Origin: Nitrospirota bacterium
GTDB lineage: Bacteria; Nitrospirota; Nitrospiria; SBBL01; JAADHI01
DNA length: 64,000 bases
Direction: 5' to 3'
Assembly (NCBI GenBank): GCA_029261195.1
Contig: JAJDBU010000059.1
Coordinates: 147,299-211,298, forward strand
Below are positions 29,006 through 51,903 of this stretch, piece by piece. Below the pieces are notes generated by a model that saw nothing but the letters and a program-made list of their open reading frames with translations, was not told the DNA's origin and searched no databases. Made by a program: the position numbers and the translations under genes. Position 1 is the first letter of the stretch. Every line of letters starts with the position of its first letter.

Positions 29006-29179
29006 CCTCAGTATTTTGCCCATTGTTTAATATCTTCAGCGGATGACTTTCTGAAATCCCTTATTTAATCAGGGAAGTGGGACAGTCAGCCGCCGCAATA
29101 TATAAACTCGAACTTTTAAATAAAATCGACAAGCCACTATGGATCTCTTGTTATTTGAGGAAGGCCGGAGTGGAAGGTG

Positions 29180-29219
29180 GGCCGGCAAAACTTTGATCAA
29201 AGGAATGCTGGCTTTTTTT
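29180..29219 (+). terminator. Rho-independent terminator / attenuator candidate 30 nt upstream of dabB
   Basis: GCCGGCA (29181-29187) pairs with TGCTGGC (29206-29212), including one G-U pair. Inner CTTT/AAAG helix with a GATC loop. Followed by TTTTTTT (29213-29219). Confidence 0.6.
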
Positions 29220-29248
29220 ATACCCTTTTGAATTAAGGACCCGCTCTC

Positions 29249-30979: not shown

Positions 30980-30980
30980 A

Positions 30981-32180
30981 ATGAAAAAGGTCGCCCTGGG
31001 AATCACCCTCGCAACGCACATCGGCCTTTCGGTCTTTTTATCCGGAGGGACGACTTCATTGATGACCCCGCTTGTCCTCCTGCTTCCCCTTGCGGCCACG
31101 TTCACGCTTCTTGCCGCTGATGGACATCTGACGGACAGGGCAGAGCTGCTCACTCTCCTACTCCTTCTGTGTCTTGGCCTGGGCTTCATGATGCTACCAG
31201 GCGGGGCGAGTCTTCTTGCCCTGGGTGGGGTTTTCATTGTCTTGATTGTGCTGCTGTTTCGAGAACAAAGCCGGTCCCGTTTTTCGGTACTTTGGGGTAT
31301 CGGACTCTATGGATTCGCACTGGCGGCCCTCTTTGCCTCTTTTGCAGTCTCTTCCCCGACAGCATCTACTCTATTGTTCATAGCCTATGCCATTCTTCTT
31401 CCCACTTGTCCGCTGCATGGGGCATCCATCGTGTGCGCAAGTCGTCTGCGGGGGATTCCGCCTAATTTTCTTGCGCTCTTTTTGCCGATACTGGGACTGC
31501 ACGGAGCCTTGGGTATCCTCCCCGACCTACCCTCTGCACTCATGAATGTCGTGTCTGTTTTTGCCTTGATCGGCGCGCTTTACGGCGGCATTCGGGCAGT
31601 GGTTCAAACCAACATCCGCCATCGATTGGCCTATGCCGCACTCAGCTTCTGGTCGATTCTCTGGTGGTATCTTGCCTCTCCCGGCATGGAGGCAGCGACG
31701 GCGATGCTTTACCTCTGCGCCCTCGGTCTTATCATGCAGGGACTCTTTGTCAGCGTACAACTACTGGAAAAACGTCATGGCCTGCTGAATCTCGATCAAT
31801 TGGGCGGACTGGCTCAGGTCATGCCTCGTTTCGGTGTCTTATTGAGTCTGCTGGTTGCAGCAGGCATGGGCCTGCCCCTCTTCGGTTCTTTCACAGCCTT
31901 GCTTGCCATGGCGACCTCTCCGGCAACCACACTTTCATGGGGTTTTGTGCTTGTCCTCCTGGCCTGGCTCCTGTCCTCCTGGCATTTTCCCCTTTTCATG
32001 CAGCGCATTCTCATGGGTCCGCCGAAACCCGATAGAATCTACCGCGACCTGGACCGAAGCGAAACCCTTTCTTTAACTCTAATTGTCGTGATGATCGTGA
32101 TACTGGGAATTGCGCCACAAGTCCTTATCGGCTCAGCACAGACACTTTCCGTTCAGAAGGCCAACTCCCGGATAAAATAG
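30981..32180 (+). CDS. Second, short antiporter-like (NuoM/NuoN/MrpD family) membrane subunit
   Basis: The ATG at 30981 lies 1 nt after the dabB stop. Core motifs: RHRLAYAALSFWS, LGGLAQVMP, and GLPLFGSFTALLAM. About 12 TM helices. Confidence 0.6.
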   Translation: MKKVALGITLATHIGLSVFLSGGTTSLMTPLVLLLPLAATFTLLAADGHLTDRAELLTLLLLLCLGLGFMMLPGGASLLALGGVFIVLIVLLFREQSRSRFSVLWGIGLYGFALAALFASFAVSSPTASTLLFIAYAILLPTCPLHGASIVCASRLRGIPPNFLALFLPILGLHGALGILPDLPSALMNVVSVFALIGALYGGIRAVVQTNIRHRLAYAALSFWSILWWYLASPGMEAATAMLYLCALGLIMQGLFVSVQLLEKRHGLLNLDQLGGLAQVMPRFGVLLSLLVAAGMGLPLFGSFTALLAMATSPATTLSWGFVLVLLAWLLSSWHFPLFMQRILMGPPKPDRIYRDLDRSETLSLTLIVVMIVILGIAPQVLIGSAQTLSVQKANSRIK

Positions 32181-32182
32181 AC

Positions 32183-35100
32183 ATGGCTGAAACAAAGATG
32201 AACAAAAAAACAAAGAACGCCTACGACGATTCCGCCCGAATGGGCTTGAGGGGGCTCGTCCGTATCGCCGGTGAAATCAATTCAAGCGTTTGGCCGATGA
32301 CCTCCTTCGTCACCAATAACCCGCTGCATTCCCTGGAATATCTCGATTTTGAAGAAGCCATCCGTCTGGGTCGTGAGCGGATCGGCGGCTTAGGCTATCT
32401 CTCAAATACATTTTACCGGGACTATTACCGGTCCGGGCGTATTCTTTTGGAAGACATCGATCAGGCCCTTAAAACACGGGTACAGGATGAAAGCATTCAA
32501 CTTGGAAATCGCGAATTGAGCCATAAAGAAGTCCTTCGCATCCGCCTTCTTGTCCCGACGGCTCCGCCGAAAACAGCGGCCGCAGACATCCTGCTTCAAA
32601 TTGCAGAAGACGCAGGCGGCCTGAAAAAACTGTCGGAAAAACTGAAAGGGACCATCAAAGCCCCATCAATCGAAGAACAAATCGCCGCCATGCAAAAAGC
32701 GGATTCGGGCAAACTGGCCCATCACCAAAGCCTTTCCCGATGGTGTGACGAAAGTTTCGGGACGGAGATCTCCGAAAAAATCAACAAGGAAATGACCCAT
32801 TGGTGCGGGGCTTTTTTGGATGAGGGACAGGCCCCCTGGGAAATGCCCGGTAGAGAACAGGGCTTTTACACGGCATGGAAACGCGCCGCACAAGAGTATT
32901 GTGAGGGTAGCGGTATCCGCAATATCCGGGAGAAGATCAGCCGTCTTTCAGAACATGCTGAATCTGCTGTGCTGGAAAGCCTTGATCTGCTGGGGATTCC
33001 ATCGTCTGCACGGGAAGCCTACCTTTCACTTCATCTTGCCGCGCTTCCCGGCTGGACGGCCTTTGCCAAGTGGCGGTCACGGCAGACTGAATATGAATGG
33101 CAGAAGGCTTATCCGATTGATCTGGTTCAGATGCTGGCCGTTCGTTTGTGGTATGAGCGGGAATGGGTATTAACGCTTTGTGATGAAAAAATCCGTCCGG
33201 GAGATGAAAACGCCTATGGGACGATTCTCACCTACATGGAACAATGCTCCGCAGCACATTTTTTCAGAAAGGAAGGTGTTGCAGGCCACTTGCCCGCCTG
33301 GCTTTCAGAGGAGGTTGATCTTCTGCTTTATGCCGATCTCTCCCGACAGACAAAAGGCTGGGATCAACTGGCCGCAGACTACGAAAACGAAGAGAGCCCG
33401 GATCGAGACCGCCTTGCCTGTCTTTCCGCTGCCTGGCAACTCACGGCCCTTGCTTATGAACTGAAGATCAATGCTGAACACCTGCACGACCTCCCGACGG
33501 ACAGGCTCTTGACCCTGCTTGCCTGGCTGGAAGACTTCCCTGAATCCCGACACGGACCCTATTGGCTGGCGGCTTTTGAGGCGGGTTATCGGCGGACACT
33601 GATCGAAAAATTGCAACGAAATATCGTCAAAAGTACGGAACGAAATGCGACATCTTCAAATGGCCGTCCCCTGGCCCAGGCCATCTTCTGTATTGATGTC
33701 CGTTCGGAACCCTTCCGTCGTCAACTGGAACAGGTCGGTCATTACGACACCTACGGCTTTGCCGGTTTTTTTGCGGCCTTCATCCGTTATCGCGCCTTTG
33801 GCAGCCACCACGACACCGACCTCTTCCCCGTGGTGATGGAAGCCAAGAATGTCGTCCATGAAATCCCCAGAATCTCTGAAGAAAAACACGTCTCCCGTCA
33901 CCTGGCCGGAACAAAACTCCTCCATGCGGGACACACCCTTTTTCACGACCTGAAAGAAAACGTCATCACCCCCTATGTCATGGTCGAATCCATCGGCTGG
34001 TTTTTCGCCTTTCCCTTTTTCGGGAAAACCTTCTGGCCCGTGCAATATGCAGCCTGGGTCAAGCGCCTGCTGAAACGCTTTGCCCCGCCCATCGCCACCA
34101 CTCTAACAGTGGATAAATCAAGTAAGGCGGAGGTGGAAGAAATCATCATTTCCGAACAGTGTGTGACGATTCGTCAGGCCCTTCGAGCATGGCTTAATCG
34201 ATCGGTCAGTGATGTTCCCCACAATCGGATTGAAGCCCTGCGTGAATGGGCCTTGAGCGGAAGTTTGTCGCAAGCGGAGGGTAGGAAAAAAACACATCAG
34301 AAGACCCTGAGCCTCTTTAAATCCAAAGCAGACGCAAGCGCCTTTGTTGAAGAACTCAGCAAGCGCTATCGGATCACTCCCGGATGGTCTTCGGCCCGAA
34401 TGGAGCAGGTGACACGGACAGGTTATACGGTGAAGGAACAGGCCTTTACGGTCGAAACGGCCTTTAGGGTGATGGGGCTCACGGACAATTTCGCCCCTTT
34501 TGTTCTGCTTTGCGCCCACGGCAGCAGCAATGAAAACAACCCCTTCGAGGCGGCCCTCGACTGCGGGGCCTGCGGCGGAAATCCCGGTGGCCCCAATGCG
34601 CGGGTTTTAGCGGCGATGGCGAACAAACCGGCCATCCGAAAATTACTCGCCAAAAAAGGACTGCTCATCCCGGAAGACACCTGGTTTATCGCCGCTCAGC
34701 ATGATACAACCACGGATGAAGTCAGCCTTTTTGACTTGGAAGAACTCCCCTCAAGCCATCATGAAGCGCTTTCCCGACTCAAAGACGATCTAAAAAAAGC
34801 CGCTCTGCTGAACAATGCAGAACGCTGTCGCACCCTGTCCAATCTTAAGACCGACCTTTCTCCGGAAGAGGCCTCAAAAGATGTGCAAAAACGCAGTAAG
34901 TCCTGGAACCAGGTAAGACCTGAATGGGGACTTTCAGGCAATGCGGCATTCATCATCGGTCATCGCGATTTGACGGAAGGTCTTGATTTGGCGGGTCGAG
35001 TCTTTCTTCATTCCTACGACACAGAGGCCGATCCGGAAGGCGCAAAGCTCGAAATCATCATGACCGGCCCCCAGGTGGTGACCCAGTGGATCAGCATGGG

Positions 35101-35443
35101 ATACTATTTTTCCATCGTCGATAATGAGGTCTACGGAAGCGGAAACAAGATTTATCATAATGTGGCCGGACGGATCGGGGTCATGTACGGGGCAAGCAGT
35201 GATTTGAGGACGGGGCTGCCCTGGCAGAGTGTCAGCAGGGACAACCGTCCCTATCATGAACCCATGCGCCTGCTGGTTGTCATTGAGGCTCCGAGGGCAC
35301 GCATTGACCCGATTATCGCGAGGCATCAAATTTTACAGCGTTATTATCACAATCGTTGGGTGAATTTAGTCGCCCTGGATGCGGGCTGCTTTTATCAATA
35401 TCTGCCGAGTGGCGAGTGGGTACGGGTACAAAAATCACCGTAG
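32183..35443 (+). CDS. dabA: DabA / MpsB (DUF2309) inorganic-carbon pump subunit
   Basis: 1086 aa with beta-carbonic-anhydrase-like metal-ligand motifs FCIDVRSE and CAHGSS...LDCGACGG. Starts 2 nt after the preceding stop. Confidence 0.85.
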   Translation: MAETKMNKKTKNAYDDSARMGLRGLVRIAGEINSSVWPMTSFVTNNPLHSLEYLDFEEAIRLGRERIGGLGYLSNTFYRDYYRSGRILLEDIDQALKTRVQDESIQLGNRELSHKEVLRIRLLVPTAPPKTAAADILLQIAEDAGGLKKLSEKLKGTIKAPSIEEQIAAMQKADSGKLAHHQSLSRWCDESFGTEISEKINKEMTHWCGAFLDEGQAPWEMPGREQGFYTAWKRAAQEYCEGSGIRNIREKISRLSEHAESAVLESLDLLGIPSSAREAYLSLHLAALPGWTAFAKWRSRQTEYEWQKAYPIDLVQMLAVRLWYEREWVLTLCDEKIRPGDENAYGTILTYMEQCSAAHFFRKEGVAGHLPAWLSEEVDLLLYADLSRQTKGWDQLAADYENEESPDRDRLACLSAAWQLTALAYELKINAEHLHDLPTDRLLTLLAWLEDFPESRHGPYWLAAFEAGYRRTLIEKLQRNIVKSTERNATSSNGRPLAQAIFCIDVRSEPFRRQLEQVGHYDTYGFAGFFAAFIRYRAFGSHHDTDLFPVVMEAKNVVHEIPRISEEKHVSRHLAGTKLLHAGHTLFHDLKENVITPYVMVESIGWFFAFPFFGKTFWPVQYAAWVKRLLKRFAPPIATTLTVDKSSKAEVEEIIISEQCVTIRQALRAWLNRSVSDVPHNRIEALREWALSGSLSQAEGRKKTHQKTLSLFKSKADASAFVEELSKRYRITPGWSSARMEQVTRTGYTVKEQAFTVETAFRVMGLTDNFAPFVLLCAHGSSNENNPFEAALDCGACGGNPGGPNARVLAAMANKPAIRKLLAKKGLLIPEDTWFIAAQHDTTTDEVSLFDLEELPSSHHEALSRLKDDLKKAALLNNAERCRTLSNLKTDLSPEEASKDVQKRSKSWNQVRPEWGLSGNAAFIIGHRDLTEGLDLAGRVFLHSYDTEADPEGAKLEIIMTGPQVVTQWISMGYYFSIVDNEVYGSGNKIYHNVAGRIGVMYGASSDLRTGLPWQSVSRDNRPYHEPMRLLVVIEAPRARIDPIIARHQILQRYYHNRWVNLVALDAGCFYQYLPSGEWVRVQKSP

Positions 35444-35532
35444 GGGCAGACCTGCGTGTCTGCCCGGTTTTGGATCGGACATGAGAGGGCCAACACATAG
35501 GTTCGCCCTCTCTACAGTAAAGGAAAAATCAT

Positions 35533-35871
35533 ATGAACAGTTTAGTGCTTCACCCGATGAAAGAGGTCCGGGTGATTGTTCCGGGCGAACATCAGGGTTT
35601 CGTAATTGAAATATTTGATGCCCTCCATATTTCGGGCTACACCATCATCAAAAATCTGGCAGGGAAAGGGCATCATGGTCTCCACACCTCCCATACCATG
35701 TTTGATGAGACGGAAAGCCGCCTGATGATTATGACAGTCGTTTCAGAAGAAAAGGTGGCACCCATCCTTGCAGGCTTGGCCCCGCTTTTCGGCCGCCATT
35801 CCGGCGTGATGTTTGTCAGCGATGTTTCAGTCAGCCGCCTGGAATATTTTTCCGAATCATCGAAAAAATGA
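35533..35871 (+). CDS. P-II-like small regulatory protein
   Basis: 112 aa with a beta-alpha-beta layout (KEVRVIVPGEH...GYTII...GKGHHG...MIMTVV), as in the P-II-family proteins often encoded beside DAB genes. Confidence 0.55.
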   Translation: MNSLVLHPMKEVRVIVPGEHQGFVIEIFDALHISGYTIIKNLAGKGHHGLHTSHTMFDETESRLMIMTVVSEEKVAPILAGLAPLFGRHSGVMFVSDVSVSRLEYFSESSKK

Positions 35872-38006: not shown

Positions 38007-38450
38007 ATGCGCCAAGTTGACTATCTTGTAGGGAAGCACGACTTTGAAAAACTGGAGGCATACCAATTTATGCAAGGAAGTGTGAGTACCTGCTTTCAAG
38101 GAACAAAGGCAGAAATGGCTGCCATGGCCATCACAACAGGGCATTTTGGAAGTCTGCCTGTCGTCGATGAAGGGAAGCGGCTTGTCGGAATTGTGAGTGA
38201 GTTTGATCTCTTAAGGGCTCTTCGTGCGGGCAAAGATCTTGACAAGGTGACCGTACAAGAAGTGATGACCCCGCAACCGGTTTCTGTCCAGGAAGGGGCA
38301 ACGGCCGACGATTTGATGAAGGTCTTGGAAGAGAATCACTTTATTCGGGTTCCAGTGGTTGATGATACCAATAAGGTCGTAGGCGTTGTTTCCCGAACAG
38401 ATATTTTACAGGGATACCTCTACGCCGATGTTAACGAGATGCCGTGGTGA
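38007..38450 (+). CDS. CBS-pair domain protein
   Basis: Two CBS motifs (GSLPVVDEGKRLVGIVSEFDLL and IRVPVVDDTNKVVGVVSRTDIL). GGGAGG Shine-Dalgarno. Confidence 0.8.
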   Translation: MRQVDYLVGKHDFEKLEAYQFMQGSVSTCFQGTKAEMAAMAITTGHFGSLPVVDEGKRLVGIVSEFDLLRALRAGKDLDKVTVQEVMTPQPVSVQEGATADDLMKVLEENHFIRVPVVDDTNKVVGVVSRTDILQGYLYADVNEMPW

Positions 38451-38726: not shown

Positions 38727-39227
38727 TTGGATGGAATCTTGCGAAAAAAAGTATATGTGTTTGACGAAGATGCGGGCACACGCGCCATTTTATGGAAAGC
38801 GTTTGATCAACGGGGCTACAAGGTAAGCACTCATTCGAGGCCTGGAGCCTGCCCTGACACTTTTCAGACTCAACTTGATTGTATCTCAGGTCGTGCTTGT
38901 GGCGATTTTGTTGTCACAAGCGTTGATCTGCCTGAAGCTCCACGATTAGAATCTATAAAAGAATTGATTATAAAAAGGGCCTGTAAAGTAGAAAATATTG
39001 CTCTGATGTCATCAACATGGACAGATTCTGAATTGGAAACTGCCAAAATGCTTGGCTGTAAGGCACTCTGGAAGCCACTGACTGTGGGTGCAGTGGCTGC
39101 ATGGATAGATGTTTGTGAAAAAAGACAGCTAGGGCGAGGGAATGAATGTTTCAAGCTACAAAAATCAGTTCGTGTCGCTTCTTCGACATGCAAGATACTG
39201 ATGTACATAGCGATTTTTATAGCTTGA
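38727..39227 (+). CDS. Orphan receiver (CheY-like) domain protein, atypical
   Basis: TTG start. REC landmarks are present in order: KVYVFDED, VTSVDLPE, ALMSS and WKP. A Cys-rich insertion is present, and the region is A+T-rich. Confidence 0.4.
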   Translation: MDGILRKKVYVFDEDAGTRAILWKAFDQRGYKVSTHSRPGACPDTFQTQLDCISGRACGDFVVTSVDLPEAPRLESIKELIIKRACKVENIALMSSTWTDSELETAKMLGCKALWKPLTVGAVAAWIDVCEKRQLGRGNECFKLQKSVRVASSTCKILMYIAIFIA

Positions 39228-39245: not shown

Positions 39246-41573
39246 TTATTCCGGTACCGGAACGAAACCGTCCCTCAGTTCTTCCGGCCCCACCGTTACT
39301 TTTCCGCCATTGCTTTGCATGAATGCAATGATCGTCAGTAGTTCCTGCTCTGAAAGCCCGATGGGCGGTTTATTGATGACGGGCATTTGTGCTGAAAACT
39401 CAACCGGCTTTCCAGCATCGAAGTCCAGTTTGACATAGGCCGCAGGCTTGACCAGCGCCTCATGGATAAACTCACGGGTTAATCGCGCCCCCACCCCGGA
39501 AAGGTTCGGACAACGACCTTGGCCCGGACCGATGGCGTGGCACAAGGCGCACTGGCCCTTGCTGTAGAATATTTCCTGCCCGATTTGAACCAGATCATCT
39601 TTGGTTTTAATCTTTGTCAGATCCAGGGCCTTCTTTTCGGGAGGTAAGCCGATCTTCTGCGGCACTTGGTAGCCGATATAGGCGTAGGCGAATAAAAAGA
39701 CGCTGACAACGCCGACGACTTTCAGAATCACAAAACGGGGACGACCGGCATCCTTTGCAGTATCTTTTCGATGCTCAGGCCGATGCTCACCAAAGAGATC
39801 CACAAGATACATCAAGACAGAAGGAATAAAAAAATAGCGTGTAGAAAAGCGATTGAGGCGTATCGTGTGTGAAGTCCAAAAAATAATGCCGACTAAAAGA
39901 AAAAAAATCGCCGTACTCATCACAAAAAGGGCGGAAGCGACCCCTAAAGTCGGCGTATAAGCATAAGCAGAGGTATCTTCCATGACCCCATAGATATGCC
40001 AGTGCACACGCGATGCGGAACGGGCATAGCCCATCATGGACATGGTTAAAACGACGAAGACCGCATTGACGATCAGCGCATACTGGGAGCGTTTCGGCAT
40101 CACGCCCCACTTCATTTCATGTGTCAGTTTTGCCGACCTGAGAGAAAGGGCCGTCAGCGGTGTGATCGTACAAAGAACGAAGAGAACCGCGAGGACCTGA
40201 GCCACGGAAAGCACATTCACCCGATAGACAGAGGGAACGAAATAACCGTAAACCCCGAGCCAGATGATGTAGACCACTGCGCCGCTAATCAGAACAACCG
40301 TAAAAATATTCGCCGCCTTCCCCCATTTCACCGTCACCACCTTGTCTGCACGCCAATAGAGGATGAAGCAGATGAAGGTCGTGATAATCATGAGGTTCAC
40401 AGCCGTCAACTTGGCCGACATCACCCCGAAGACTCCAAGCAGAGGATGGTGCGCCCCCCCCATCGCCCTTTCCTCGGCAACACTGGCTACAAGAGAATGA
40501 GGCGTCAGCCAAACCGCAAAAGAGCCGACTAAAACCACGAGCATAATGACAATGGGCATCTTGTACTTTTGGGCGGAGGAAGTTCGATAGGCGATCCCCT
40601 GCCAGAAATAGTAGTTTGCCCCGACGAAAAGCACGCCGATGAGCACCGCCTGGAGGATGAAAAGCCAGGAGAGGATGCCTCCCATGAGCATAATCCCCAT
40701 CTGCTGGTTATATTCATAGATTTCGCGCATCAGGTAGTAGCCCGCGAAAGGCATCGGAAGGATCCCGAAAACACCGATAAAATTTCCGGTATAGCCCATC
40801 CAGTCGTAATGTTCCCGCTCTTCCTGTGTTTTTGCGCCTAAATACGCAACCCCGGCATAAGCACCGCAGACAAAGCCTCCCAGAACAATATTGCCGACAA
40901 TTCGGTGTATATTCACGGGCCACCATGTCGGGTTGTTCATGGCGGCCCAGGCCCGTTCCCACTCCCCTAATTCCGGATTCAAGACCACGGGGCTTGCCTG
41001 GAAGGAGAGAAAACCACTCGGAAGACACATCACCGCAAATCCGAAAAGATTGAGCATCACCCCCCAAAAAACATGAAGGGCTTTTCGATCCTTCCATTTT
41101 TCCCACTTGGACCAATAGTAGTAGATCGAGGTTGTCTCGCCTATAAACAGGCCGAGATAGACGTAGTAGGCCGGCTTAAAGATGCCTGTCATCACGCTCA
41201 TGAGTTCAGGATAAAAAACGAGGAGCGTAAAAAGAAAAAGCATCCCAAGCGTTGCAGTCGTTGCAAAACAGGCGACGATCAGGTCGGTAAATTCCTTGGC
41301 GAGACGGTCATAGCGTTTTTCACCGGTTGAAATGCCGATGATTTCGACAATGAGGACAAATATGGGCACACCCAACACGAATGCGCCGAATAAGATGTGC
41401 AACTGGGCTAACATCCAGATCAGATTACGGCTGCCGATGCCAGCGATATCGCGATAACGCACAGCAGAGCCGGTCTCCGCAAAGACCACTGTTGAAGGGA
41501 GCAAGAGCAGCGCCATTAAAAGGAAGACCGCCCAAACAACTGAATTATTATATTTTTTAATTGAATTTCTCAT
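39246..41573 (-). CDS. Cytochrome bd-like oxidase subunit I homolog fused to a C-terminal class I cytochrome c domain
   Basis: CydA-like N-terminal helices (AQLHILFGAFVLGVPIF; NPTWWPVNIHRIVGN) and about 14 TM helices. The C-terminal domain has CALCH plus a distal Met (AQMPV). No cydB-like gene is adjacent. Confidence 0.7.
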   Translation of the reverse strand: MRNSIKKYNNSVVWAVFLLMALLLLPSTVVFAETGSAVRYRDIAGIGSRNLIWMLAQLHILFGAFVLGVPIFVLIVEIIGISTGEKRYDRLAKEFTDLIVACFATTATLGMLFLFTLLVFYPELMSVMTGIFKPAYYVYLGLFIGETTSIYYYWSKWEKWKDRKALHVFWGVMLNLFGFAVMCLPSGFLSFQASPVVLNPELGEWERAWAAMNNPTWWPVNIHRIVGNIVLGGFVCGAYAGVAYLGAKTQEEREHYDWMGYTGNFIGVFGILPMPFAGYYLMREIYEYNQQMGIMLMGGILSWLFILQAVLIGVLFVGANYYFWQGIAYRTSSAQKYKMPIVIMLVVLVGSFAVWLTPHSLVASVAEERAMGGAHHPLLGVFGVMSAKLTAVNLMIITTFICFILYWRADKVVTVKWGKAANIFTVVLISGAVVYIIWLGVYGYFVPSVYRVNVLSVAQVLAVLFVLCTITPLTALSLRSAKLTHEMKWGVMPKRSQYALIVNAVFVVLTMSMMGYARSASRVHWHIYGVMEDTSAYAYTPTLGVASALFVMSTAIFFLLVGIIFWTSHTIRLNRFSTRYFFIPSVLMYLVDLFGEHRPEHRKDTAKDAGRPRFVILKVVGVVSVFLFAYAYIGYQVPQKIGLPPEKKALDLTKIKTKDDLVQIGQEIFYSKGQCALCHAIGPGQGRCPNLSGVGARLTREFIHEALVKPAAYVKLDFDAGKPVEFSAQMPVINKPPIGLSEQELLTIIAFMQSNGGKVTVGPEELRDGFVPVPE

Positions 41574-43117
41574 GTCACATGCCTTAAAAACGCAAGGCGT
41601 TTAACCAAACACATAAATACAGCGCTTCCTTTTCTGTAGAAATAATCCGTATCCAGACTGATCTGCTTTTCCGGCTTCAACTTCTTCAAGAACAGCATAA
41701 AGGCCAAGAGCGTAAAACCCAGATACTGAAAGGCTTCAACGAGGTGGCCCATCGTGTAGGGATGATAGTCCATTGGATGGGGCAGCATGTCATAGAGCAA
41801 TCCGGGAAAAAGGCCAAAAGAGACACAGATCAATGCAAGAATTCTCATTGCCCACAACATGTGAGCAGGCGGATCTTTCGCCGTAATTTTCCAGCCTTCC
41901 CCCCGAGCTTCTCCAAGAAAAATCGTATAGATGAGTTTCAAGGGTGTCAGCCAGGTCCCGCAGGCGGCAAAGACAAGCATCAATATCACCCAGCCCTGAT
42001 GTGCTTCAGCCGCAGCTGAAACAACAATCGACTTGCTCACAAATCCCAGAAGCGGGGGCAGACCCGCAATGGAAAAGCCCCCGATCACGAACAGAAGAAA
42101 GGTCCAGGGCATACTTTTGTAAAGCCCTCCCAGCTCGCTTTGCTTTCGCCCTCCCGTCATGTGGGTGACGGAACTGATACCCATCATGAGCAGGGCCTTA
42201 TAAATAATATTAGTGAACGCGAGGGAGACCGCGCCGTTGATTCCCAGCGCAGTGCCGATACCGATCCCTGTAATCATGTATCCGTTCTGACTGATCAGAT
42301 GGTAACACCAGGCCCGTTGACAATTATTTTCATTGACCACATACATCACGCCGTAAACCGCCATAACGGCCCCCAGGACAATCAGGATGGGCGTTCCGGG
42401 AAAACCGCGAATCAAGGCATAAATCGCCGTCTTTGTTGTAAAGACACTCAGAAAAATTACACCGGTCAATGTTGCTTCGGGATAGGCATCTGCCAGCCAG
42501 GCATGAACCGGCGGCACTGCCGCGTTAATCAGGAAGCCCATGAGCATCATGATCGGGCCTAATCCCATTTGCGGAAAAGCATCAAATGTGATTCCGCCAC
42601 CACTCGCGACATGCATCGTAATCCCGCCAAGCAGTAAAATTCCGCCGGTAATGTGAACCAGCATATAACGCATGCCGGCAGCATTAGACGCTTTTCCCCC
42701 CCGTAACCAAATCAAGAAGACAGAGGAAAACGAAGCAATTTCCCAGAATAGAAAGAAGGTAAAGAGGTCGCCCGCAAAGACCGCACCCACTGCACTGCCG
42801 ACGTAGAGCAGCGCGGCCATATGTTCACGGCAATCTTTCACATGTAAAGCAAAGACAAAGCTTGCAAAAGCACTCACCATAAAAACAGCGCCGAATCCTA
42901 GGCTTAATTTGTCGACACGACCGAAGATCAGGTCATGACCGATAAAAGGAAGGACACCATGTGTTCCCTGCGAAGCGGAAAGGATTGCAAGCAAGCCCAG
43001 CGCTGGGATCGAAAGCAGCAGCGCAGAACGGCTTCTTCCTTTTACAAGGGGAAGAAGCGCTGCGCCAAGATAGAAGAACAGGGAGGGTTGCACCCACTCA
43101 ATCATCGTTATTCTCAA
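41570..43117 (-). CDS. MrpD/NuoN-type antiporter-like membrane subunit (2)
   Basis: Proton_antipo_M-type core: FFLFWEIASFSS, PVHAWLADAYPEA, and GGLYKSMPWTF. Its stop overlaps the bd-like oxidase start (ATGA). Confidence 0.75.
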   Translation of the reverse strand: MRITMIEWVQPSLFFYLGAALLPLVKGRSRSALLLSIPALGLLAILSASQGTHGVLPFIGHDLIFGRVDKLSLGFGAVFMVSAFASFVFALHVKDCREHMAALLYVGSAVGAVFAGDLFTFFLFWEIASFSSVFLIWLRGGKASNAAGMRYMLVHITGGILLLGGITMHVASGGGITFDAFPQMGLGPIMMLMGFLINAAVPPVHAWLADAYPEATLTGVIFLSVFTTKTAIYALIRGFPGTPILIVLGAVMAVYGVMYVVNENNCQRAWCYHLISQNGYMITGIGIGTALGINGAVSLAFTNIIYKALLMMGISSVTHMTGGRKQSELGGLYKSMPWTFLLFVIGGFSIAGLPPLLGFVSKSIVVSAAAEAHQGWVILMLVFAACGTWLTPLKLIYTIFLGEARGEGWKITAKDPPAHMLWAMRILALICVSFGLFPGLLYDMLPHPMDYHPYTMGHLVEAFQYLGFTLLAFMLFLKKLKPEKQISLDTDYFYRKGSAVFMCLVKRLAFLRHVT

Positions 43118-43123
43118 ATTTCA

Positions 43124-44662
43124 TCAGCCTGTCACCTGTTTAATCAGATCCAGAAAAAGGTCCGGGAAAATCCCCAATAGAATAGAAAGTGCAGCCGTCA
43201 CGCACAAAGGAATCACACAAAACAGGGGCTCCTTCACTCGGATTTCAGGCACAGGGAATTCAGTCCCCTCCAAGCCTCGCCCTCCGCCTTCCTCAAGGCC
43301 ATCTTTGTCCCCTGCAAGGGCAAGCGACAGCCTCTTGTCAGGCGCCTTAAAAAAAGCCTGATGGACAATCGGTAAAAAATAAAAAGCGTTTAATAAACCA
43401 CTGCTGAGCATCACAAAAAACATGGGCGCCTGATTGGCCTCAACTGAACCCAGCAACAAATACCACTTGCTTAAGAAGCCGGCAGAGGGTGGCACGCCAA
43501 TCATGCTCAAGCTTGCAATGGCAAAGGCCCCCATCGTCCAGGGCATCTGCCGACCCATGCCATTGAGTTGAGACACCTTGGTCTTTTGCGTCGCCACATA
43601 GATTGCACCCGCACAGAAGAAGAGTGTGATTTTAGAAACCGCATGATTGACAATGTGTAAAATACCGCCGGTCAGCCCGCTGGAGCTTAGGAGCACCGCG
43701 CCCAAGACCATGTAGGAAAGCTGACTCACCGTAGAATAGGCAATCCGTTCCTTGAGGTTATCCCGCGACAAGGCATAGATCGATGCCATAATAATCGTAA
43801 AACCGGCGAGGGTGCTGGCAATTGATCCGACATTCAGGGTCTTCAGCAGGTCCACACCGAAGGTATTGAGGACAACGCGCAAAATACAAAATGCTCCGGT
43901 ATTCACCACTGCAACGGCATGCAGGAGCGCACTGACCGGTGTGGGGGCAACCATGGAAGCAGGTAACCAGGCAGAAAAAGGCATCAGCGCCGTCTTGGTC
44001 GCGCCGAAGAGGAAAAGGAAAAAAATAAGGACCAGGGTGCTTGATGCCATATCCGCAGGGAAAATGCCGCTTGCCGTAAAATCAAGTGTTCCAGCGTGGT
44101 AGTAGCTTAAGAAAATGGCGATTCCCAGGAAAACCTTCGAGGGCGCCATCAGATATAAGAGGTACTTATTCCCTCCAAGCCAGGCCTCCTTTGTTTCATG
44201 ATGCACGACCAGAGGGTAGGTAAAGAAGGTAATCAGTTCATAAAAGAAAATGAGCGTCAACCAGTTATTGGAAAAAGCCGCCCCCATGGTCGCAAACAGC
44301 GTCACTGCAAAAAAGAAATAGAAGCGGGTCTGTGAATGCTCATTGAGGCCGCGCATATATCCGATAGAGTACAAGGTGGTCAAGATCCAGGTAAAGGAGG
44401 AGACTAGGGCAAAAAGCAGCCCCAGGCCATCCACCCGGAAGCCCGTGGGAACAGAAGGCCATATCGTGAAGAGGGTATAACGAAGGGTTTTCCCCTCAAG
44501 GACGGGGGGGATCATGCTCAGCACAGCAAAAAACATCAAGACCCCTGCCACAAGGGAACATCCCTCCCGAAGATTTTTATGCTTCCGGGTGACAAGGATC
44601 AGCAGGGCCCCGATAAAAGGGATCAATGCTGCGACAAAGGGTTTGATGGATTCCATTTCCAT
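43124..44662 (-). CDS. MrpD/NuoM-type antiporter-like membrane subunit (1)
   Basis: FFYELITFFTYPLV, FSAWLPASMVAPTPVSALLHA, RIAYSTVSQLSYM, and LNGMGRQMPW. It sits 6 nt upstream of the next gene. Confidence 0.75.
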   Translation of the reverse strand: MEMESIKPFVAALIPFIGALLILVTRKHKNLREGCSLVAGVLMFFAVLSMIPPVLEGKTLRYTLFTIWPSVPTGFRVDGLGLLFALVSSFTWILTTLYSIGYMRGLNEHSQTRFYFFFAVTLFATMGAAFSNNWLTLIFFYELITFFTYPLVVHHETKEAWLGGNKYLLYLMAPSKVFLGIAIFLSYYHAGTLDFTASGIFPADMASSTLVLIFFLFLFGATKTALMPFSAWLPASMVAPTPVSALLHAVAVVNTGAFCILRVVLNTFGVDLLKTLNVGSIASTLAGFTIIMASIYALSRDNLKERIAYSTVSQLSYMVLGAVLLSSSGLTGGILHIVNHAVSKITLFFCAGAIYVATQKTKVSQLNGMGRQMPWTMGAFAIASLSMIGVPPSAGFLSKWYLLLGSVEANQAPMFFVMLSSGLLNAFYFLPIVHQAFFKAPDKRLSLALAGDKDGLEEGGGRGLEGTEFPVPEIRVKEPLFCVIPLCVTAALSILLGIFPDLFLDLIKQVTG

Positions 44663-44909: not shown

Positions 44910-45356
44910 TTAGAAACCCGATTGCCGGCCGACGGTTGATTCAACATAACAGTCAAGAATATCTCTACGTGCAACGATACCAATCAATTTCCCTTTAGGG
45001 TCGACTACGGGTACGCGGATGAGGTGTCGCGCCTGGAGAAGGTCAATCACCTCCATGACCGGCGTCTCTTCCTCAATGGTGACCACTGACTGCGTCATGA
45101 CCTCTGAGGCGGGAGTCTCACGCAGATATTTCCCTTTCATCAAGGCATTTAGAATATCGAATTCACTCACAAGGCCGATCAGCATCCTTTCCGAGTTAAT
45201 GACCGGGATGCTCCCAAAGCCCCTTTTGAACAATGTATCCGCGATGTCATGGCAGGAAGTCTCTTTATCGACGGAAACAACATTTCTTTCCATCAAGTGA
45301 GAGGCCTTGACCTCGGCCATGCTTTTTCCACCCACGCGAAAATCTGTTAGTCGCAT
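44910..45356 (-). CDS. CBS-pair domain protein (tandem paralog B)
   Basis: The ATG at 45356 follows AAGGAG. Two CBS motifs (GSIPVINSERMLIGLVSEFDIL and IRVPVVDPKGKLIGIVARRDIL). Confidence 0.8.
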   Translation of the reverse strand: MRLTDFRVGGKSMAEVKASHLMERNVVSVDKETSCHDIADTLFKRGFGSIPVINSERMLIGLVSEFDILNALMKGKYLRETPASEVMTQSVVTIEEETPVMEVIDLLQARHLIRVPVVDPKGKLIGIVARRDILDCYVESTVGRQSGF

Positions 45357-45382: not shown

Positions 45383-45844
45383 TCAAACATCATGTTTAAA
45401 GCCAGGGAGCGGCCCGAAGCCTGATTTGGCATAACATCCCAGAATATCTCTCCGCGAAATAATCCCGATCAAGATCTCTTCGGCATCGACCACCGGTACC
45501 CGGATAAAGTGTTTAGACAGAAGGAGGTGTATCACCTCCTCTATCGGCATCTCCTCTGTAATCGATATAACGGGCTTCGCCATGATCTCAACAGCGAGTG
45601 TCTCGCGCAGATCCATTCCTTCTTTCAGCGCTTCCATGAGGTCATATTCACTCACAACCCCGATCAACTCCTTTTTATGGTTGGTGATCGGGATACTGCC
45701 AAATCTCCCTTTAAGCATGGTCTCTGCCAGCACATTGCAGTAAGTCTCTTTACCAAAGGAGATCACCTCTCGATTCATCATGTGGGAGGCGGTCATCTCC
45801 GTCATGCTTTTTCCCCCGACACGGAAAGCCAGTCGTTGATTCAT
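45383..45844 (-). CDS. CBS-pair domain protein (tandem paralog A)
   Basis: The ATG at 45844 (MNQRLAFRVGGKSM) is chosen by alignment with paralog B (MRLTDFRVGGKSM). Two CBS motifs. Confidence 0.75.
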   Translation of the reverse strand: MNQRLAFRVGGKSMTEMTASHMMNREVISFGKETYCNVLAETMLKGRFGSIPITNHKKELIGVVSEYDLMEALKEGMDLRETLAVEIMAKPVISITEEMPIEEVIHLLLSKHFIRVPVVDAEEILIGIISRRDILGCYAKSGFGPLPGFKHDV

Positions 45845-46316: not shown

Positions 46317-48254
46317 CTATCTTCCGCTGAAAAACCAGCCGAGCAGTCCGACGAGTACACCGAACACGGCCAGCCACATCCGCACCTGGGTGGATTTTCG
46401 CGTTCTTTCGGTATTCTGAGCCGCAATCAAATTGAGGTAGTTTGAACTGGTCCGCAGGAAGGCCGTGTAGTTCTTCATCATTTCCTGAGAAATCGATCTT
46501 AGATTATCCAAACCCGTGAGATATTTGCAGCGGAGGACCGCAGTGCGGGAGGTGTTGGCGAGAAGATGCGCTTCTAAAAGTTCCGTCAAATCGCCAAAGG
46601 GGGAAACCAACCTGGCGCGCGCCATGAACGAGGTGGCTTCCGCAATCCATTTTGAGAATTCTGCTTCGACCTCGTGTTTTTCCAGTTTTAATGTAAGTTG
46701 TTCCCGACGTAGCTCCTTGATGCTGTGATGCCCGCTTTCATCTTTTTTCATCCAGGAAAGAAACTGACTCCTCCAGGACAGGGTTGCGGATGGATAGCTC
46801 ACCATCTGTTTCACCTTGATGTTGAGCTGCTCAAAAACAAAAGCCCCCTCATTGTGAATGGCGCGGGTAAACAAACGCTGCGCCCTGGCGGCGGTATTAA
46901 TGATGTTGATGACGATATGCACGGCTTCGACTACGCCGAAGCGGAAGGCCATTTTATCGCGTTCATCATAATCCAGGACACACCAACCGCGCCTTGCGAT
47001 ATAAACAATGCTCCCGCTTGCGCCATAAATGTTTCTTTTGCTCAGATAGCGGTCGATATGATCAAACTTGTTTAGAAAAGCGGGGGTTGTTCGCCCCGCA
47101 GCCACAACGAGATATTTTTCCATCATTTCTTTTTTTCCATCAGACAAGTCGTCTTTGGCTGTTTCCGTCTTGAAAATAATGGTCCCAATGTAGGGTCTGG
47201 AGCAGGTCAACCTTTTGTCACGGCCATATTCCGGGAGGGTCTCCCATTGACCAGACTCAAAAGTGAGCCTTCTGAGTCCAAGTTTTTTCAAGGCATGCAC
47301 AATGACACGATCAATTTTATTTCTGAAAAATTCTGCATGGACAAGCAATTCCCCGATTTTTTGCCCGTGAGTGTCGCTTCGACGACGGATGAGTTCCGGA
47401 TGGCAAATTGCGCCCAGCAGTTGGTCAGCAGATATCTTATCCCGGTTTTGAAGTCGAATATTCAGCGAGACAAAGCCATATTTCCATATCGTCACTTCAA
47501 TGCTGGAGATACCTTCATAGGCCTCATATCTTTCCGAAAGGGCGAAAGGGCAGTCTGTGAAGTGTGTAGTGCCTTCATGAATCGGTATTGTGAATTCGTC
47601 GTTTGCGGCGCTTTTGCTCTCAAGACTGATCTGAAATTGGGTGAGAATGATTTCACTTAAAAACTGGTCGCTGAAATAGGCAGTGGCTTGAGCGCTTCTT
47701 AAATTACGAAAGTGAATTTGGTACTGCTCGTCGGTTTCATTTTTCTCGTTTAATAAACCGGGATAGGTCTGTGCTAAAAGGCTTCGATTGAGCGAAATAA
47801 GATCGACCCATTCCTGTTGTTGATCCATTGAAGTCGCACTTGAGGCCTTGCTGTAGTCTTTTTCCGAGCGAAAGCGGTTGCTGATCAAAAATTGATTCAG
47901 TTTGTTGCTCAAAATCGTTTTTAGAAAGTTCTCAGAATCTCCGGAGGCCTGACATTGATTCAGCTGCTGTCGCATGGAAGGGGAGAATTGCCGCTGGAGG
48001 TAATGGGAGAGAGGGTCGCTTCCAGTGCGGATTTGATCCCATAATTTAAAGGCTGAAAGGATGTCATCCCCGCAAAAGGGCGGAAGGGATTTTACGACAA
48101 GCGGATCCCTGATAAAGTCATCCTGCTCGAATGTCGAGGATTCAATCTTTGTGGATATGCGGCCGCCAAGGTAGTAATGATAGGTGAAATTGAGTTCCAG
48201 GCCTTTCGGCGGCATCTGAAGGAGATTTTCTTCAAAATCATTTTTTGCTGTCAT
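46317..48254 (-). CDS. Large hypothetical tail-anchored membrane protein (645 aa)
   Basis: The long ORF is trimmed to the ATG at 48254, 20 nt after the pdxH stop. It has a single C-terminal TM helix (MWLAVFGVLVGLLGWFF). No family recognised. Confidence 0.6.
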   Translation of the reverse strand: MTAKNDFEENLLQMPPKGLELNFTYHYYLGGRISTKIESSTFEQDDFIRDPLVVKSLPPFCGDDILSAFKLWDQIRTGSDPLSHYLQRQFSPSMRQQLNQCQASGDSENFLKTILSNKLNQFLISNRFRSEKDYSKASSATSMDQQQEWVDLISLNRSLLAQTYPGLLNEKNETDEQYQIHFRNLRSAQATAYFSDQFLSEIILTQFQISLESKSAANDEFTIPIHEGTTHFTDCPFALSERYEAYEGISSIEVTIWKYGFVSLNIRLQNRDKISADQLLGAICHPELIRRRSDTHGQKIGELLVHAEFFRNKIDRVIVHALKKLGLRRLTFESGQWETLPEYGRDKRLTCSRPYIGTIIFKTETAKDDLSDGKKEMMEKYLVVAAGRTTPAFLNKFDHIDRYLSKRNIYGASGSIVYIARRGWCVLDYDERDKMAFRFGVVEAVHIVINIINTAARAQRLFTRAIHNEGAFVFEQLNIKVKQMVSYPSATLSWRSQFLSWMKKDESGHHSIKELRREQLTLKLEKHEVEAEFSKWIAEATSFMARARLVSPFGDLTELLEAHLLANTSRTAVLRCKYLTGLDNLRSISQEMMKNYTAFLRTSSNYLNLIAAQNTERTRKSTQVRMWLAVFGVLVGLLGWFFSGR

Positions 48255-48273
48255 CGGTCTGTCGTCATTTTCA

Positions 48274-48912
48274 TTATGGGGCCAGTCGTTCGATGTGCCA
48301 TAGATCATCAGGCTGTGGCGTATAAACGAAACGATCATGGAGGCGGTCGGGGCGTCCTTGCCAGAATTCAAAAAGTCCGGGAACAATCCGATAGCCTCCC
48401 CAGAAATCGGGAATCGGTATCGAGCCTTCAGAAAAGCGTTTCGTGAAGGTTCTGAACTGGTTCTCCAGAATCTTTCTTGAGGAAATGACGCTGCTCTGGT
48501 GAGAGATCCAGGCCCCGAGTTGGCTGCCTCTCGGACGGGAGATGAAGTATTTGAGCGATTCCGCTGTGGGTATTTTCGATGCCGTCCCGAGTATTTTGAC
48601 CTGACGGTCAAGACTTAACCACGGAAACAGGAGGGCGACCTGTTTATTTTCTTCGATCTGCAGGGCTTTTTCACTCGCATAATTCGTAAAAAAGACAAAA
48701 CCACGCTCATCGAAAATCTTGAGCAAAACCGTCCTGAGGGTCGGCATCCCGGATTTTGATGCCGTCGCCAAACTCATTGCATTCGGATAATCGATCTTTG
48801 AATCACAGGCCTCCGTAAACCAGGTTGCAAACTGTCTGACAGGGTTTTGATCAAGATCAGTTTTCTGAAGGCCTTCCCGTTGATGTTCTTTTCTTATGCC
48901 ACTGATATCCAC
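48274..48912 (-). CDS. pdxH: Pyridoxamine 5'-phosphate oxidase
   Basis: RTVLLK, FVFFTNYASEK, and FEFWQGRPDRLHDR, with the C-terminal ERLAP. Confidence 0.9.
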   Translation of the reverse strand: MDISGIRKEHQREGLQKTDLDQNPVRQFATWFTEACDSKIDYPNAMSLATASKSGMPTLRTVLLKIFDERGFVFFTNYASEKALQIEENKQVALLFPWLSLDRQVKILGTASKIPTAESLKYFISRPRGSQLGAWISHQSSVISSRKILENQFRTFTKRFSEGSIPIPDFWGGYRIVPGLFEFWQGRPDRLHDRFVYTPQPDDLWHIERLAP

Positions 48913-50938: not shown

Positions 50939-51358
50939 ATGAAAGCGTCAAGAATGTCAATCGTTGCTTTGTTCACGGCAGTCCTATTCACGGGTTTAAG
51001 TGTATTTCCATCTTTTTTAACGGCAGGGACTTCTCCGATTGAAGTCCTGATTAGAGTCACCGACCAGGGCTTTTTCGATGCAGAGGGCCGCTCCCTCAAT
51101 AACCTCATTAAGGTGCCAAAGGAGCGGAACATCAAGCTCATCTTTGAGGGCGCGGGAAAACCTACGGAAAGACACGCCTTTGTCCTATTATTTGACTCTG
51201 ATAAAGAGATAGAAAGCGGGCGGATTGACGATCAAAACAGACGGACGCAGATTGAGTTTACCTCGGGCGAGGCGGATGAAACCTATGACGTTTTCTGTGT
51301 CCTCGTCGATTGCGATGGCATGGAACATTTGACAGATCTCGTCATCATGGCAATTTAA
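50939..51358 (+). CDS. Secreted cupredoxin-like protein (paralog 2)
   Basis: The ATG at 50939 (MKASRMSIVALF). Carries the same HAFVLLFDSD and FCVLVDCDGMEH motifs as 35887..36312. Confidence 0.6.
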   Translation: MKASRMSIVALFTAVLFTGLSVFPSFLTAGTSPIEVLIRVTDQGFFDAEGRSLNNLIKVPKERNIKLIFEGAGKPTERHAFVLLFDSDKEIESGRIDDQNRRTQIEFTSGEADETYDVFCVLVDCDGMEHLTDLVIMAI

Positions 51359-51903
51359 TGAAGGCCATGGAGACGCAAGCGATGTCGCAAAAAATGATTT
51401 TACAGGTGATGGTGATTGTTGCAGTAAGCCTCATATTGAGTCAGGGCAAGGCCTTTTCTGCAGAAGGGAATGAAAAACCTTTAAAGCCGGTTCCTGCGGC
51501 CTACGCCGATAAGCTTATGCCGGAAGGCTGGTGGACGGATGCGAAGATCATTGAAGAGGGAAAGAAGATCTTTGAGACGACAGTCTTGGAATACGAGTTT
51601 AAGCGAAAAAAACGCATTGCCAAAGAAGGCTGTTCAAGCTGTCATGGCATTGACATCAAAAAAGATCGCCCCAAAAAGAGAGGGTCGCCTGATTTCAGAA
51701 TTGCCGAAAGAGTCAACCGTTTTTCAGAGGCTTACTGGTTCTGGCGGGTTGCGGAAGGGGTTGCCAAAACGCGTATGCCCCCTTGGAAAAAGAAACTTTC
51801 CGAGGCGGAAATCTGGAAAGTCATTGCCTATCAGCACACTTGGTCTCACGGAAACACCTCTGCCATACACGACCACAAGGAAATAGAACACCCTGTTCGG
51901 TAG
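51358..51903 (+). CDS. Monoheme c-type cytochrome
   Basis: Its start overlaps the preceding stop (TAATG). Signal peptide, CSSCH heme site, and a distal Met in TRMPPW. Confidence 0.7.
   Translation: MKAMETQAMSQKMILQVMVIVAVSLILSQGKAFSAEGNEKPLKPVPAAYADKLMPEGWWTDAKIIEEGKKIFETTVLEYEFKRKKRIAKEGCSSCHGIDIKKDRPKKRGSPDFRIAERVNRFSEAYWFWRVAEGVAKTRMPPWKKKLSEAEIWKVIAYQHTWSHGNTSAIHDHKEIEHPVR

Follow-up and report, generated by a model that had tools for sequence, protein, structure and literature searches.

Can an oxidase of the bd superfamily, whose members are classically non-pumping, become an ion pump when antiporter-like subunits are placed at its side? This question is raised by a locus in a stretch of 64,000 nucleotides (nt), hereafter the window, from a Nitrospirota bacterium (contig JAJDBU010000059.1, positions 147,299 to 211,298), in which three genes on the minus strand encode two MrpD-type antiporter-like proteins, MrpD1 and MrpD2, followed by a bd-like oxidase that ends in a cytochrome c domain. 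The answer that we favour, with a probability of roughly one half, is that the locus represents a minimal, paralogous copy of the TO_2 module of Candidatus (Ca.) Manganitrophaceae, and that its oxidase would drive forward pumping of H+ or Na+ via both MrpD subunits. The features needed for the argument, including short open reading frames (ORFs) and the position of transmembrane helices (TM), are the following (lengths in amino acids, aa).

45383-45844, minus strand: CBS-pair protein 2, probably ~153 aa from the ATG at 45844 (Pfam CBS twice, 1.6e-25)
44910-45356, minus strand: CBS-pair protein 1, probably ~148 aa from the ATG at 45356 (Pfam CBS twice, 7e-29)
43124-44662, minus strand: MrpD1, 512 aa, with Pfam Proton_antipo_M and the N-terminal domain Proton_antipo_N
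43098-43124, minus strand: mini-ORF of 8 codons, MKFENNDD*, remnant of a deleted 85-aa gene, sequence ATGAAATTTGAGAATAACGATGATTGA
41570-43105, minus strand: MrpD2, 511 aa, MrpD-type antiporter-like protein (Pfam, NCBIfam)
39246-41573, minus strand: putative OR-N2-type bd-like oxidase with a C-terminal periplasmic monohaem cytochrome c, 775 aa (Pfam, AlphaFold2, Foldseek)
39828-39860, minus strand: linker motif R572-LNRFSTRYFF-582, between TM13 and the anchor helix of the cytochrome c
39249-39626, minus strand: cytochrome c domain, residues ~650-775, with CxxCH at 39537-39551 (Pfam Cytochrom_C)

A sequence-only reading of the window had described three packed minus-strand ORFs, which are indeed present at 39246-41573, 41570-43117 and 43124-44662, and an ATGA overlap at 41570-41573, which was confirmed in the DNA and joins the stop codon of MrpD2 to the start codon of the oxidase. 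In contrast, the 6-nt gap that it placed at 43118-43123 and the TTG start at 43117 proved to be artefacts of ORF calling. MrpD2 starts at the ATG at 43105, and every orthologue begins with MIEWVQPS; the stop codon of MrpD1 lies at 43124-43126, and the mini-ORF fills the space down to the MrpD2 ATG, keeping the overlapping stop/start arrangement that the 85-aa gene has in relatives. The lengths of the two upstream CBS ORFs given above are likewise the probable ones by comparison with the related locus L089.

Pfam scans covered all 58 non-overlapping window ORFs of at least 90 aa, and no shorter ones. They recovered the Proton_antipo_M cores that had been proposed for both ~510-aa proteins, found Cyt_bd_oxida_I and Cytochrom_C in the 775-aa protein, in agreement with its description as CydA-like and ending in a cytochrome c (motif C675-A-L-C-H679), and, together with the ORF list, bore out the two CBS-pair genes immediately upstream on the same strand. 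As had been stated, no member of the CydB, MnhB, MnhC, MrpE, MrpF, MrpG or Nuo families was found in this set, and only two Proton_antipo_M proteins stand at the locus in place of the seven-subunit Mrp set (MrpA-G). Predicted regulatory sites did not set the boundaries of the operon: promoter-like sites were at the shuffled expectation (13 versus 11.9), and terminator-like sites (28 versus 13.6 in shuffled sequence) lie mostly inside coding sequence.

What kind of oxidase is encoded? The 775-aa protein matches Cyt_bd_oxida_I (PF01654) at 2.3e-17 (63.2 bits, cutoff 26.2) with residues 49-289, which cover only the N-terminal half of the profile. Its AlphaFold2 model, built on an alignment of 72 sequences (pLDDT 80.6, pTM 0.82), shows a signal-like N-terminal helix, ~14 membrane helices (residues 48-636) and the C-terminal cytochrome c domain, and the top 10 Foldseek matches of this model in the PDB were all CydA (probability 1.0, target-normalised TM-score 0.48-0.58). 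By alignment to Geobacillus CydA (5doq_A), H59 in TM1 is the equivalent of the axial ligand His21 (His19 in Escherichia coli) and H223 that of the haem b558 ligand His186 (same number in both species), while Y139 and E146 take the positions of Glu101 and Glu108 (E99 and E107 in E. coli). Equivalents of His19 and His186, the haem ligands that had been singled out for a check, are therefore aligned, and both are among the residues invariant in the 72 oxidase sequences (H59, H167, H223, H376, M385, H526 and C675/C678/H679/M730). The Met393 region lies outside the pairwise alignments; M385 is invariant and N393 nearly so, approximately at the M430/N434 spacing of the OR-N2 reference.

The OR-N2 subfamily (Murali, Gennis & Hemp 2021, bioRxiv version) is characterised by 14 TM helices, the residues H99/H213/H269, Y183 and E190, the lack of a quinol site, and an operon context of several cytochromes c plus an EbdC homologue; enzymes of the OR-N group are without CydB as a rule (Murali et al. 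2021). Because the ligand pattern (H59/H167/H223 are spaced 108/56, versus 114/56 in the reference) and the ~14 TM helices fit the published table exactly, the 775-aa protein can be assigned from its sequence to the OR-N2 subfamily (NIDE0901-like). The absence of CydB, which had been regarded as unusual, is therefore not an anomaly, since its lack is normal in this subfamily. In the Nitrospirales literature, the NIDE0901-like OR-N2 protein figures as the putative terminal oxidase that oxidises cytochrome c, a role for which biochemical proof is still awaited. The features of the quinol-oxidising CydAB enzymes are lacking, in that the E99 equivalent is Tyr139, the Pfam match stops before the Q-loop region and the window has no CydB, and the electron donor is presumably a cytochrome c and not quinol. 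A canonical CydAB operon or a rearranged cydB/mrp operon was thus considered and rejected, the oxidase being of the type without CydB and the scanned ORFs containing no CydB, Mrp or Nuo partner. The fused cytochrome c is recognised by Pfam (Cytochrom_C, 1e-5, residues 663-754; haem motif C675xxC678H679) and matches the dihaem protein 7zs0 at 4e-13; Met730 is the likely axial ligand of its haem. Among the candidates scored, 4685 homologues of the oxidase were found at E <= 1e-5, in Nitrospirota and in Nitrospinota-labelled metagenomes.

The two antiporter-like proteins are not interchangeable. MrpD1 (Pfam 1e-47; 665.6 bits in NCBIfam NF006236, cutoff 663) and MrpD2 (Pfam 6e-38; 604.3 bits in NF009310, cutoff 564) both reach an "antiporter subunit D" equivalog, but the best alignments of MrpD1 are with NuoL/MrpA-type chains and those of MrpD2 with MrpD/NuoM-type chains. 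In MrpD1, which has no long lateral-helix extension, alignment to Mycobacterium smegmatis NuoL (8e9g_L) shows all residues of the channel axis to be present: E142 in TM5, K223 in TM7, H248 in TM8, H336/H340/K344 in TM11 and K399 in TM12. MrpD2 keeps E122, K225, K303 and K358 and has Asn194 at the position of the TM7 lysine (K219 in Bacillus pseudofirmus MrpD). A proposed check for Lys/Glu channel residues is thus answered positively for both subunits, with Asn at this one position. Asn194 and the four charged residues are invariant in 119/119 homologues, including longer, likely complex I-type members, which rules out the exchange of Lys for Asn as a sign of decay.

Homologues of MrpD2 with 50-63% identity occur in Omnitrophica, Delta- and Gammaproteobacteria and Gallionellales, and one of the related loci, L092, is a complex I operon without NuoL, in the order nuoJ - nuoK - MrpD-like (485 aa) - 87-aa ORF - MrpD-like (587 aa) - nuoM - nuoN - nuoA-G. 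The window MrpD1 is 51% identical to the first of these MrpD-like proteins (E 9e-158) and the window MrpD2 51% identical to the second (E 4e-177), the 85-aa ORF (from L089) shares 35% identity with the 87-aa ORF (E 6e-16), and non-corresponding pairs of window and L092 proteins reach just 25-28%. The correspondence with L092 holds for each of the three genes and for their order, so that MrpD1, the small ORF and MrpD2 constitute a portable distal pump module, employed by complex I and by OR-N2 oxidases alike. Two MrpD-like subunits in place of NuoL are the mark of the "green" complex I (Chadwick et al. 2018, as described in PMC9040806). The C-terminus of the complex I version is extended by ~84 aa, which the oxidase-linked MrpD2 lacks. 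At the window locus no nuo genes adjoin the module and its small protein gene is deleted. In relatives this 85-aa gene, located between MrpD1 and MrpD2, encodes a two-helix membrane protein; comparison of DNA and protein with L089 and L007 shows that it was lost by a clean in-frame deletion of 231 nt, flanked on either side by GATGAA microhomology. Elsewhere in the window the 85-aa protein was not found, and among the clusters with this type of MrpD2 the loss has occurred in the window copy alone. It should be added that in the full clusters of L001, L009 and L011 a 604-aa NuoL/MrpD1-like paralogue (e.g. L001:8153-9967) replaces the second MrpD and no small ORF is present; this paralogue shares 31% identity with the complex I MrpD1, as against only 25% with MrpD2 of the window.

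Is the neighbourhood of the three genes a coincidence? The trio is far from a chance arrangement, because the same genes adjoin each other, in two orders, in loci of several lineages, and the expected co-conservation in related genomes was thereby found. The closest cytochrome-flanked relatives (L007/L008, L090 and L093, with oxidases 83-85% identical) share one common gene order, in which the full cluster starts with two cytochromes c - MrpD1 - 85-aa ORF - MrpD2 - oxidase - two cytochromes c and continues with cytochrome c/EB_dh - hypothetical - Rieske - cytochrome b - hypothetical - multihaem protein; the same full gene set is present in L012, from a genome labelled Ca. Manganitrophaceae. 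The second order, oxidase - MrpD1 - small ORF(s) - MrpD2 - cytochrome c - cytochrome c/EB_dh - cytochrome c, was found in Nitrospira sp. Kam-Ns4a, in a Nitrospira metagenome-assembled genome (MAG) from Rifle and a Nitrospiria MAG from Hainich, and also in hydrothermal "Nitrospinae" and HyVt contigs, a Tara MAG and one MAG labelled Gammaproteobacteria. The last of these, L019 (CAMYNL010000009.1, "uncultured Gammaproteobacteria bacterium FO_Gamma_078.1"), has a complete oxidase-MrpD1-small ORF-MrpD2-cytochrome c/EB_dh cluster on a 179-kb contig, and the presence of the cluster in a gammaproteobacterial bin points to horizontal transfer or mis-binning. For TO_2, a restriction to Ca. Manganitrophaceae has been reported (Yu et al. 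2022, PMC9040806), which does not hold for the core module, because the core was found in Nitrospira, in Nitrospinota-labelled contigs and in the gammaproteobacterial MAG.

The pairing with MrpD is a minority trait. It was found in 10/80 loci of GTDB species representatives and in 2/26 informative metagenome loci, and is not present in Nitrospira moscoviensis, N. defluvii and ~45 other informative loci. Neighbour-joining places the MrpD-linked oxidases in two coherent clades, apart from a large clade of Nitrospira oxidases without MrpD. The BipA protein of the window is 93-94% identical to metagenome proteins, 80% to a protein from a hydrothermal-vent metagenome, 78-79% to proteins of "Nitrospiria bacterium" MAGs and 72-76% to those of Ca. 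Manganitrophaceae/Ca. Manganitrophus, including Ca. M. noduliformans, and at most 67% to other lineages. Because of these identities, the window is taken to come from a Nitrospiria genome beside or within the marine Ca. Manganitrophaceae branch.

A structural difference accompanies the pairing. All of the 18 non-identical MrpD-linked proteins from informative loci carry a fusion of core and cytochrome c through an R..F…YFF linker after TM13, and none of the 45 oxidases without MrpD does. The latter number excludes L013 and L015, sisters of the Manganitrophaceae-like clade with gaps in the alignment at residues 580-582, which are uninformative as their upstream flank is short; in both, a cytochrome c lies directly before the oxidase and no MrpD was hit. 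Fisher's test on the regular expression gave p = 8e-10 for the association of motif and MrpD, a value that overstates its strength. Because the fusion through the linker is tied to the presence of the pump module, residues 572-582 are a candidate docking or contact element with this module. In canonical Nitrospira, including L033 (N. moscoviensis), L042 (N. defluvii) and ~40 other loci, the OR-N2 core stops after TM13 (…FIFWVATMGDKAK*), and the membrane-anchored cytochrome c (MSEV..LQLIGL…VPQMASLPP), fused in the MrpD-linked forms, is a separate downstream ORF.

The same association bears on whether the genes need to work together at all. They might be co-regulated without being coupled, so that the MrpD pair would act as a CBS-gated cation/proton exchanger or as a scaffold in ion homeostasis and the oxidase as a plain, non-pumping enzyme or a sensor of O2 or redox state. 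CBS-pair domains commonly regulate ion transporters (MgtE, ClC, ProV), genes for ion transport, TrkAH and a K+ channel among them, are plentiful in the window, no coupling module of the E-channel type is recognisable, and MrpD2 has Asn at the TM7 position. However, the pair never stands beside an OR-N2 oxidase without the fusion and linker motif, start/stop overlaps link all genes, and the same module is part of a redox-driven pump in complex I; a pair of MrpA-N and MrpD without MrpB, C, E, F and G has no known precedent as a working antiporter. We therefore regard uncoupled co-regulation as unlikely.

How does the window copy relate to the full clusters? The order CBS-CBS-MrpD1-(85-aa ORF)-MrpD2-oxidase recurs in L089, another Nitrospiria MAG, where both CBS orthologues occupy the same positions, so that the upstream CBS pair is conserved with the trio in a second genome. 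The oxidases of the window, of L089 (P0003) and of L094 (P0043) form a clade that is sister to the cytochrome-flanked clade, and all three of these type B oxidases have short C-termini without the acidic tail of type A, the type of the full clusters. P0043 is encoded on JBHHXH010000025.1, followed by housekeeping genes, and a full cluster is present on JBHHXH010000029.1. Because both contigs belong to assembly GCA_046756925.1, type B is, provided that the binning is clean, a paralogous partial duplicate, which at least one genome carries in addition to a full cluster. A metagenome scan revealed no further type B loci.

A redundant duplicate might be in decay, having lost partners, C-terminal tail and small subunit and no longer yielding a functional assembly. 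The deletion of the 85-aa gene, the absence of all partner genes and the coexistence of full cluster and type B copy in a related MAG would fit such a fate. But the three long ORFs are intact, the deletion kept the overlapping stop/start, and the type B arrangement persists in three diverged genomes (~84-87% identity). Moreover, ratios of non-synonymous to synonymous substitution rates (dN/dS) against L089 are 0.11 for MrpD1, 0.09 for MrpD2 and 0.085 for the oxidase (0.12 and 0.19 for CBS proteins 1 and 2), and departures of the window proteins from columns conserved in at least 95% of sequences number 3/121 and 3/214, no more than in controls. Because dN/dS lies at 0.085-0.11, the trio is under purifying selection. 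Pseudogenisation is supported neither by dN/dS nor by the conserved sites, with the reservation that a recent relaxation of selection is compatible with these values, and we consider a decaying locus very improbable.

The partners that surround the trio elsewhere are missing here. Homologues of EB_dh, cytochrome b and Rieske proteins were not found in the 64-kb window by tblastn with the L007 proteins, nor were the periplasm-accessible and membrane cytochromes b of TO_2, and neither the locus nor the window has the set of several cytochromes c and an EbdC/EB_dh homologue that is typical of OR-N2 operons. tblastn matched only two places, a homologue of the 174-aa protein of the cytochrome c type and, at ~57.6-58.1 kb, a dihaem cytochrome c that is unrelated. 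The former is a monohaem cytochrome c at 51310-51903 on the plus strand (tblastn match 51382-51897), 63% identical to the 174-aa cytochrome c that lies directly before MrpD1 in the full clusters; it is located 6.6 kb from the trio on the opposite strand and could be a relic of a rearrangement or the electron donor of the trio. The sequence-only reading had allowed for a standard cydB or mrp partner outside a rearranged locus, and this came true in part only: the genes that flank the relatives' trio and are missing here encode not CydB or Mrp subunits but cytochrome c, EB_dh, Rieske and cytochrome b proteins.

These absences also matter for the direction of electron flow. An inflow of H+ or Na+ through the MrpD subunits could drive uphill electron transfer from high-potential cytochrome c to an acceptor of lower potential, or a bifurcation, and thereby supply CO2 fixation from electrons at the level of Mn(II) or nitrite. 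Reverse flow is the proposal of Yu et al. for TO_2 (PMC9040806), the relatives are high-potential lithoautotrophs that need reverse electron transport, the homologous MrpD module occurs in complex I variants discussed as reverse-running (PMC9040806), and an operon for CO2 uptake lies in the same window. However, the low-potential branch requires cytochrome b/Rieske and EB_dh, which are present in type A clusters and absent from the window, and without these partners the c haem and the CydA-like haems are the only redox centres. The lack of the low-potential branch makes reverse flow less probable for this copy, and we judge it rather unlikely here.

The CO2-uptake operon is described here for completeness:

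28612-35871, plus strand: MpsC-DabB-(NuoM-like ORF)-DabA-P-II operon, inorganic-carbon uptake

DabB (29414-30979, 521 aa) is NuoL-like, and its end is overlapped by 32 nt of the next ORF (30948-32180, 410 aa), whose match to NuoM-type profiles is confined to their C-terminal half; with 1086 aa versus a profile of 747 positions, DabA is of unusual length. The claim that the window holds four antiporter-like genes within 16 kb is correct insofar as the other two exist, but they are in this separate operon, which is known and unrelated to the trio. The Dab operon was consequently rejected as part of the same system, since this MpsC/DabB/DabA/P-II unit is a known one and lies 3.4 kb from the trio on the opposite strand.

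How would a forward pump operate? MrpD1, MrpD2 and the oxidase would assemble into one membrane complex, with the linker helix 572-582 as the likely contact element. Electrons from a periplasmic c-type carrier would enter via the fused cytochrome c and pass to the CydA-like b-type haems, where O2 would be reduced with protons taken from the cytoplasm. The resulting changes in charge or protonation would spread laterally into the MrpA-like and the MrpD-like subunit, each of which would export one H+ (or Na+), so that a non-pumping bd-type oxidase would become a pumping one. The putative role of the CBS-pair proteins would be to tune the complex to the adenylate status, and the window copy would use soluble or shared carriers, probably some of them from a full cluster elsewhere in the genome. 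Forward pumping by this minimal copy is supported by the CydA fold of the oxidase and its fused cytochrome c, and by the complete sets of buried charged channel residues in MrpD1 and MrpD2. The close translational coupling of the genes, their joint inheritance in several lineages and the homology of the MrpD module to an established part of a redox pump also speak for it.

Several points weigh against it. The known antiporter-like arrays are driven via a dedicated input module (NuoH/A/J/K or MrpB/C/E/F/G), and none is encoded here. The position of the E. coli proton-channel residue E99 is Tyr in the oxidase, MrpD2 is without the canonical TM7 Lys, and this copy has lost the small subunit kept by nearly every other cluster and has no acidic tail of the type A oxidases. 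The correlation of linker motif and MrpD rests on ~2-3 phylogenetically independent contrasts, and pairwise dN/dS at a dS of ~1 leaves room for recent relaxation of selection. In the OR-N literature no enzyme has been purified, and O2 reduction, haem content and ion pumping are unproven.

A bolder version of the proposal is that the locus encodes a self-sufficient minimal redox pump, in which the bd-type haem protein, oxidising cytochrome c, would energise both antiporter-type subunits directly, and which would work without input module, accessory cytochromes and small subunit and would be switched by the CBS proteins via adenylate. We put this forward as a tentative possibility, on the whole rather unlikely. 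If true, it would be the simplest known wiring of redox chemistry to antiporter-like pumps and a natural experiment on module recruitment. The coupling of antiporter-type subunits to redox chemistry in complex I, Mrp and membrane-bound hydrogenases is still debated, and a bd-type oxidase with a NuoL-replacing module would offer an independent, much simpler case. The question also bears on how Mn(II)- and nitrite-oxidising Nitrospirota, which live on electrons of very high potential, extract or spend membrane potential.

Some observations concern the neighbours of the trio. The second CBS protein resembles the first in sequence and may have arisen by tandem duplication. The CBS genes are immediately preceded by a 764-aa ORF (46317-48611, minus strand) with no Pfam or NCBIfam match. 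This ORF has no counterpart next to the L089 cluster, whose corresponding side is taken by a TPR protein encoded on the opposite strand. Downstream, two genes are convergent with the trio: a third CBS-pair gene (38007-38450, plus strand) and a 166-aa ORF without family hit (38727-39227, plus strand), which ends 19 nt from the stop codon of the oxidase. Farther away, the window encodes a Roc-COR GTPase (13937-15985, minus strand, 682 aa) and a protein with a phospholipase domain like that of Tle1 of type VI secretion systems (7545-9335, plus strand, 596 aa).

Which known systems does the locus resemble most? With the Mrp (Mnh/Sha) antiporters it shares an MrpA-N-like and an MrpD-like protein with buried Glu/Lys/His residues, but these are two of seven subunits, and MrpB, C, E, F and G and the C-terminal domain of MrpA are absent. 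With CydAB(X) it shares the CydA fold and the equivalents of His19 and His186, but it differs in having no CydB and no Q-loop, Tyr in place of E99, five extra TM helices and a fused cytochrome c. In the green-type complex I, the pump module sits on NuoM/N and is driven by NADH:quinone chemistry via NuoH/A/J/K, whereas in the window its redox partner would be a CydA-like haem protein. The NIDE0901-like OR-N2 proteins of Nitrospira and Nitrospina (Murali et al. 2021; Mundinger et al. 2019) belong to the same subfamily, with 49-60% identity, 14 TM helices, the H/H/H pattern, Tyr at E99, no Q-loop and no CydB; in contrast to the window, canonical Nitrospira have core and cytochrome c as separate genes, no MrpD-like neighbours and no R..F...YFF linker.

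The closest system is TO_2 of Ca. Manganitrophaceae (Yu & Leadbetter 2020; Yu et al. 2022). TO_2 has been described as a bd-like oxidase with two MrpD-like subunits and periplasmic and membrane cytochromes b, which would either generate motive force or dissipate it for uphill electron transfer (Yu et al. 2022, PMC9040806). Hence the locus cannot be called an undescribed pump or reverse-flow device, as the sequence-only reading had it, since both readings are already published for TO_2. The gene lists sought in the published supplement gave generic MrpD annotations only. Like TO_2, the window pairs a bd-like oxidase with two MrpD-like subunits, and its trio is 61-85% identical to those of L007, L090, L093 and L012. 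It differs in that the periplasmic (EB_dh) cytochrome b, its membrane counterpart, Rieske, five genes for cytochrome c and the 85-aa subunit are absent, and in that the trio is preceded by two CBS-pair genes and falls into a paralogous clade of its own, in which the C-terminus of the oxidase is shorter. Thus, systems of the TO_2 kind were known before, and what the present comparison adds to them is the linker motif that tracks MrpD, the homology of the module to complex I and the distinction of two paralogous cluster types.

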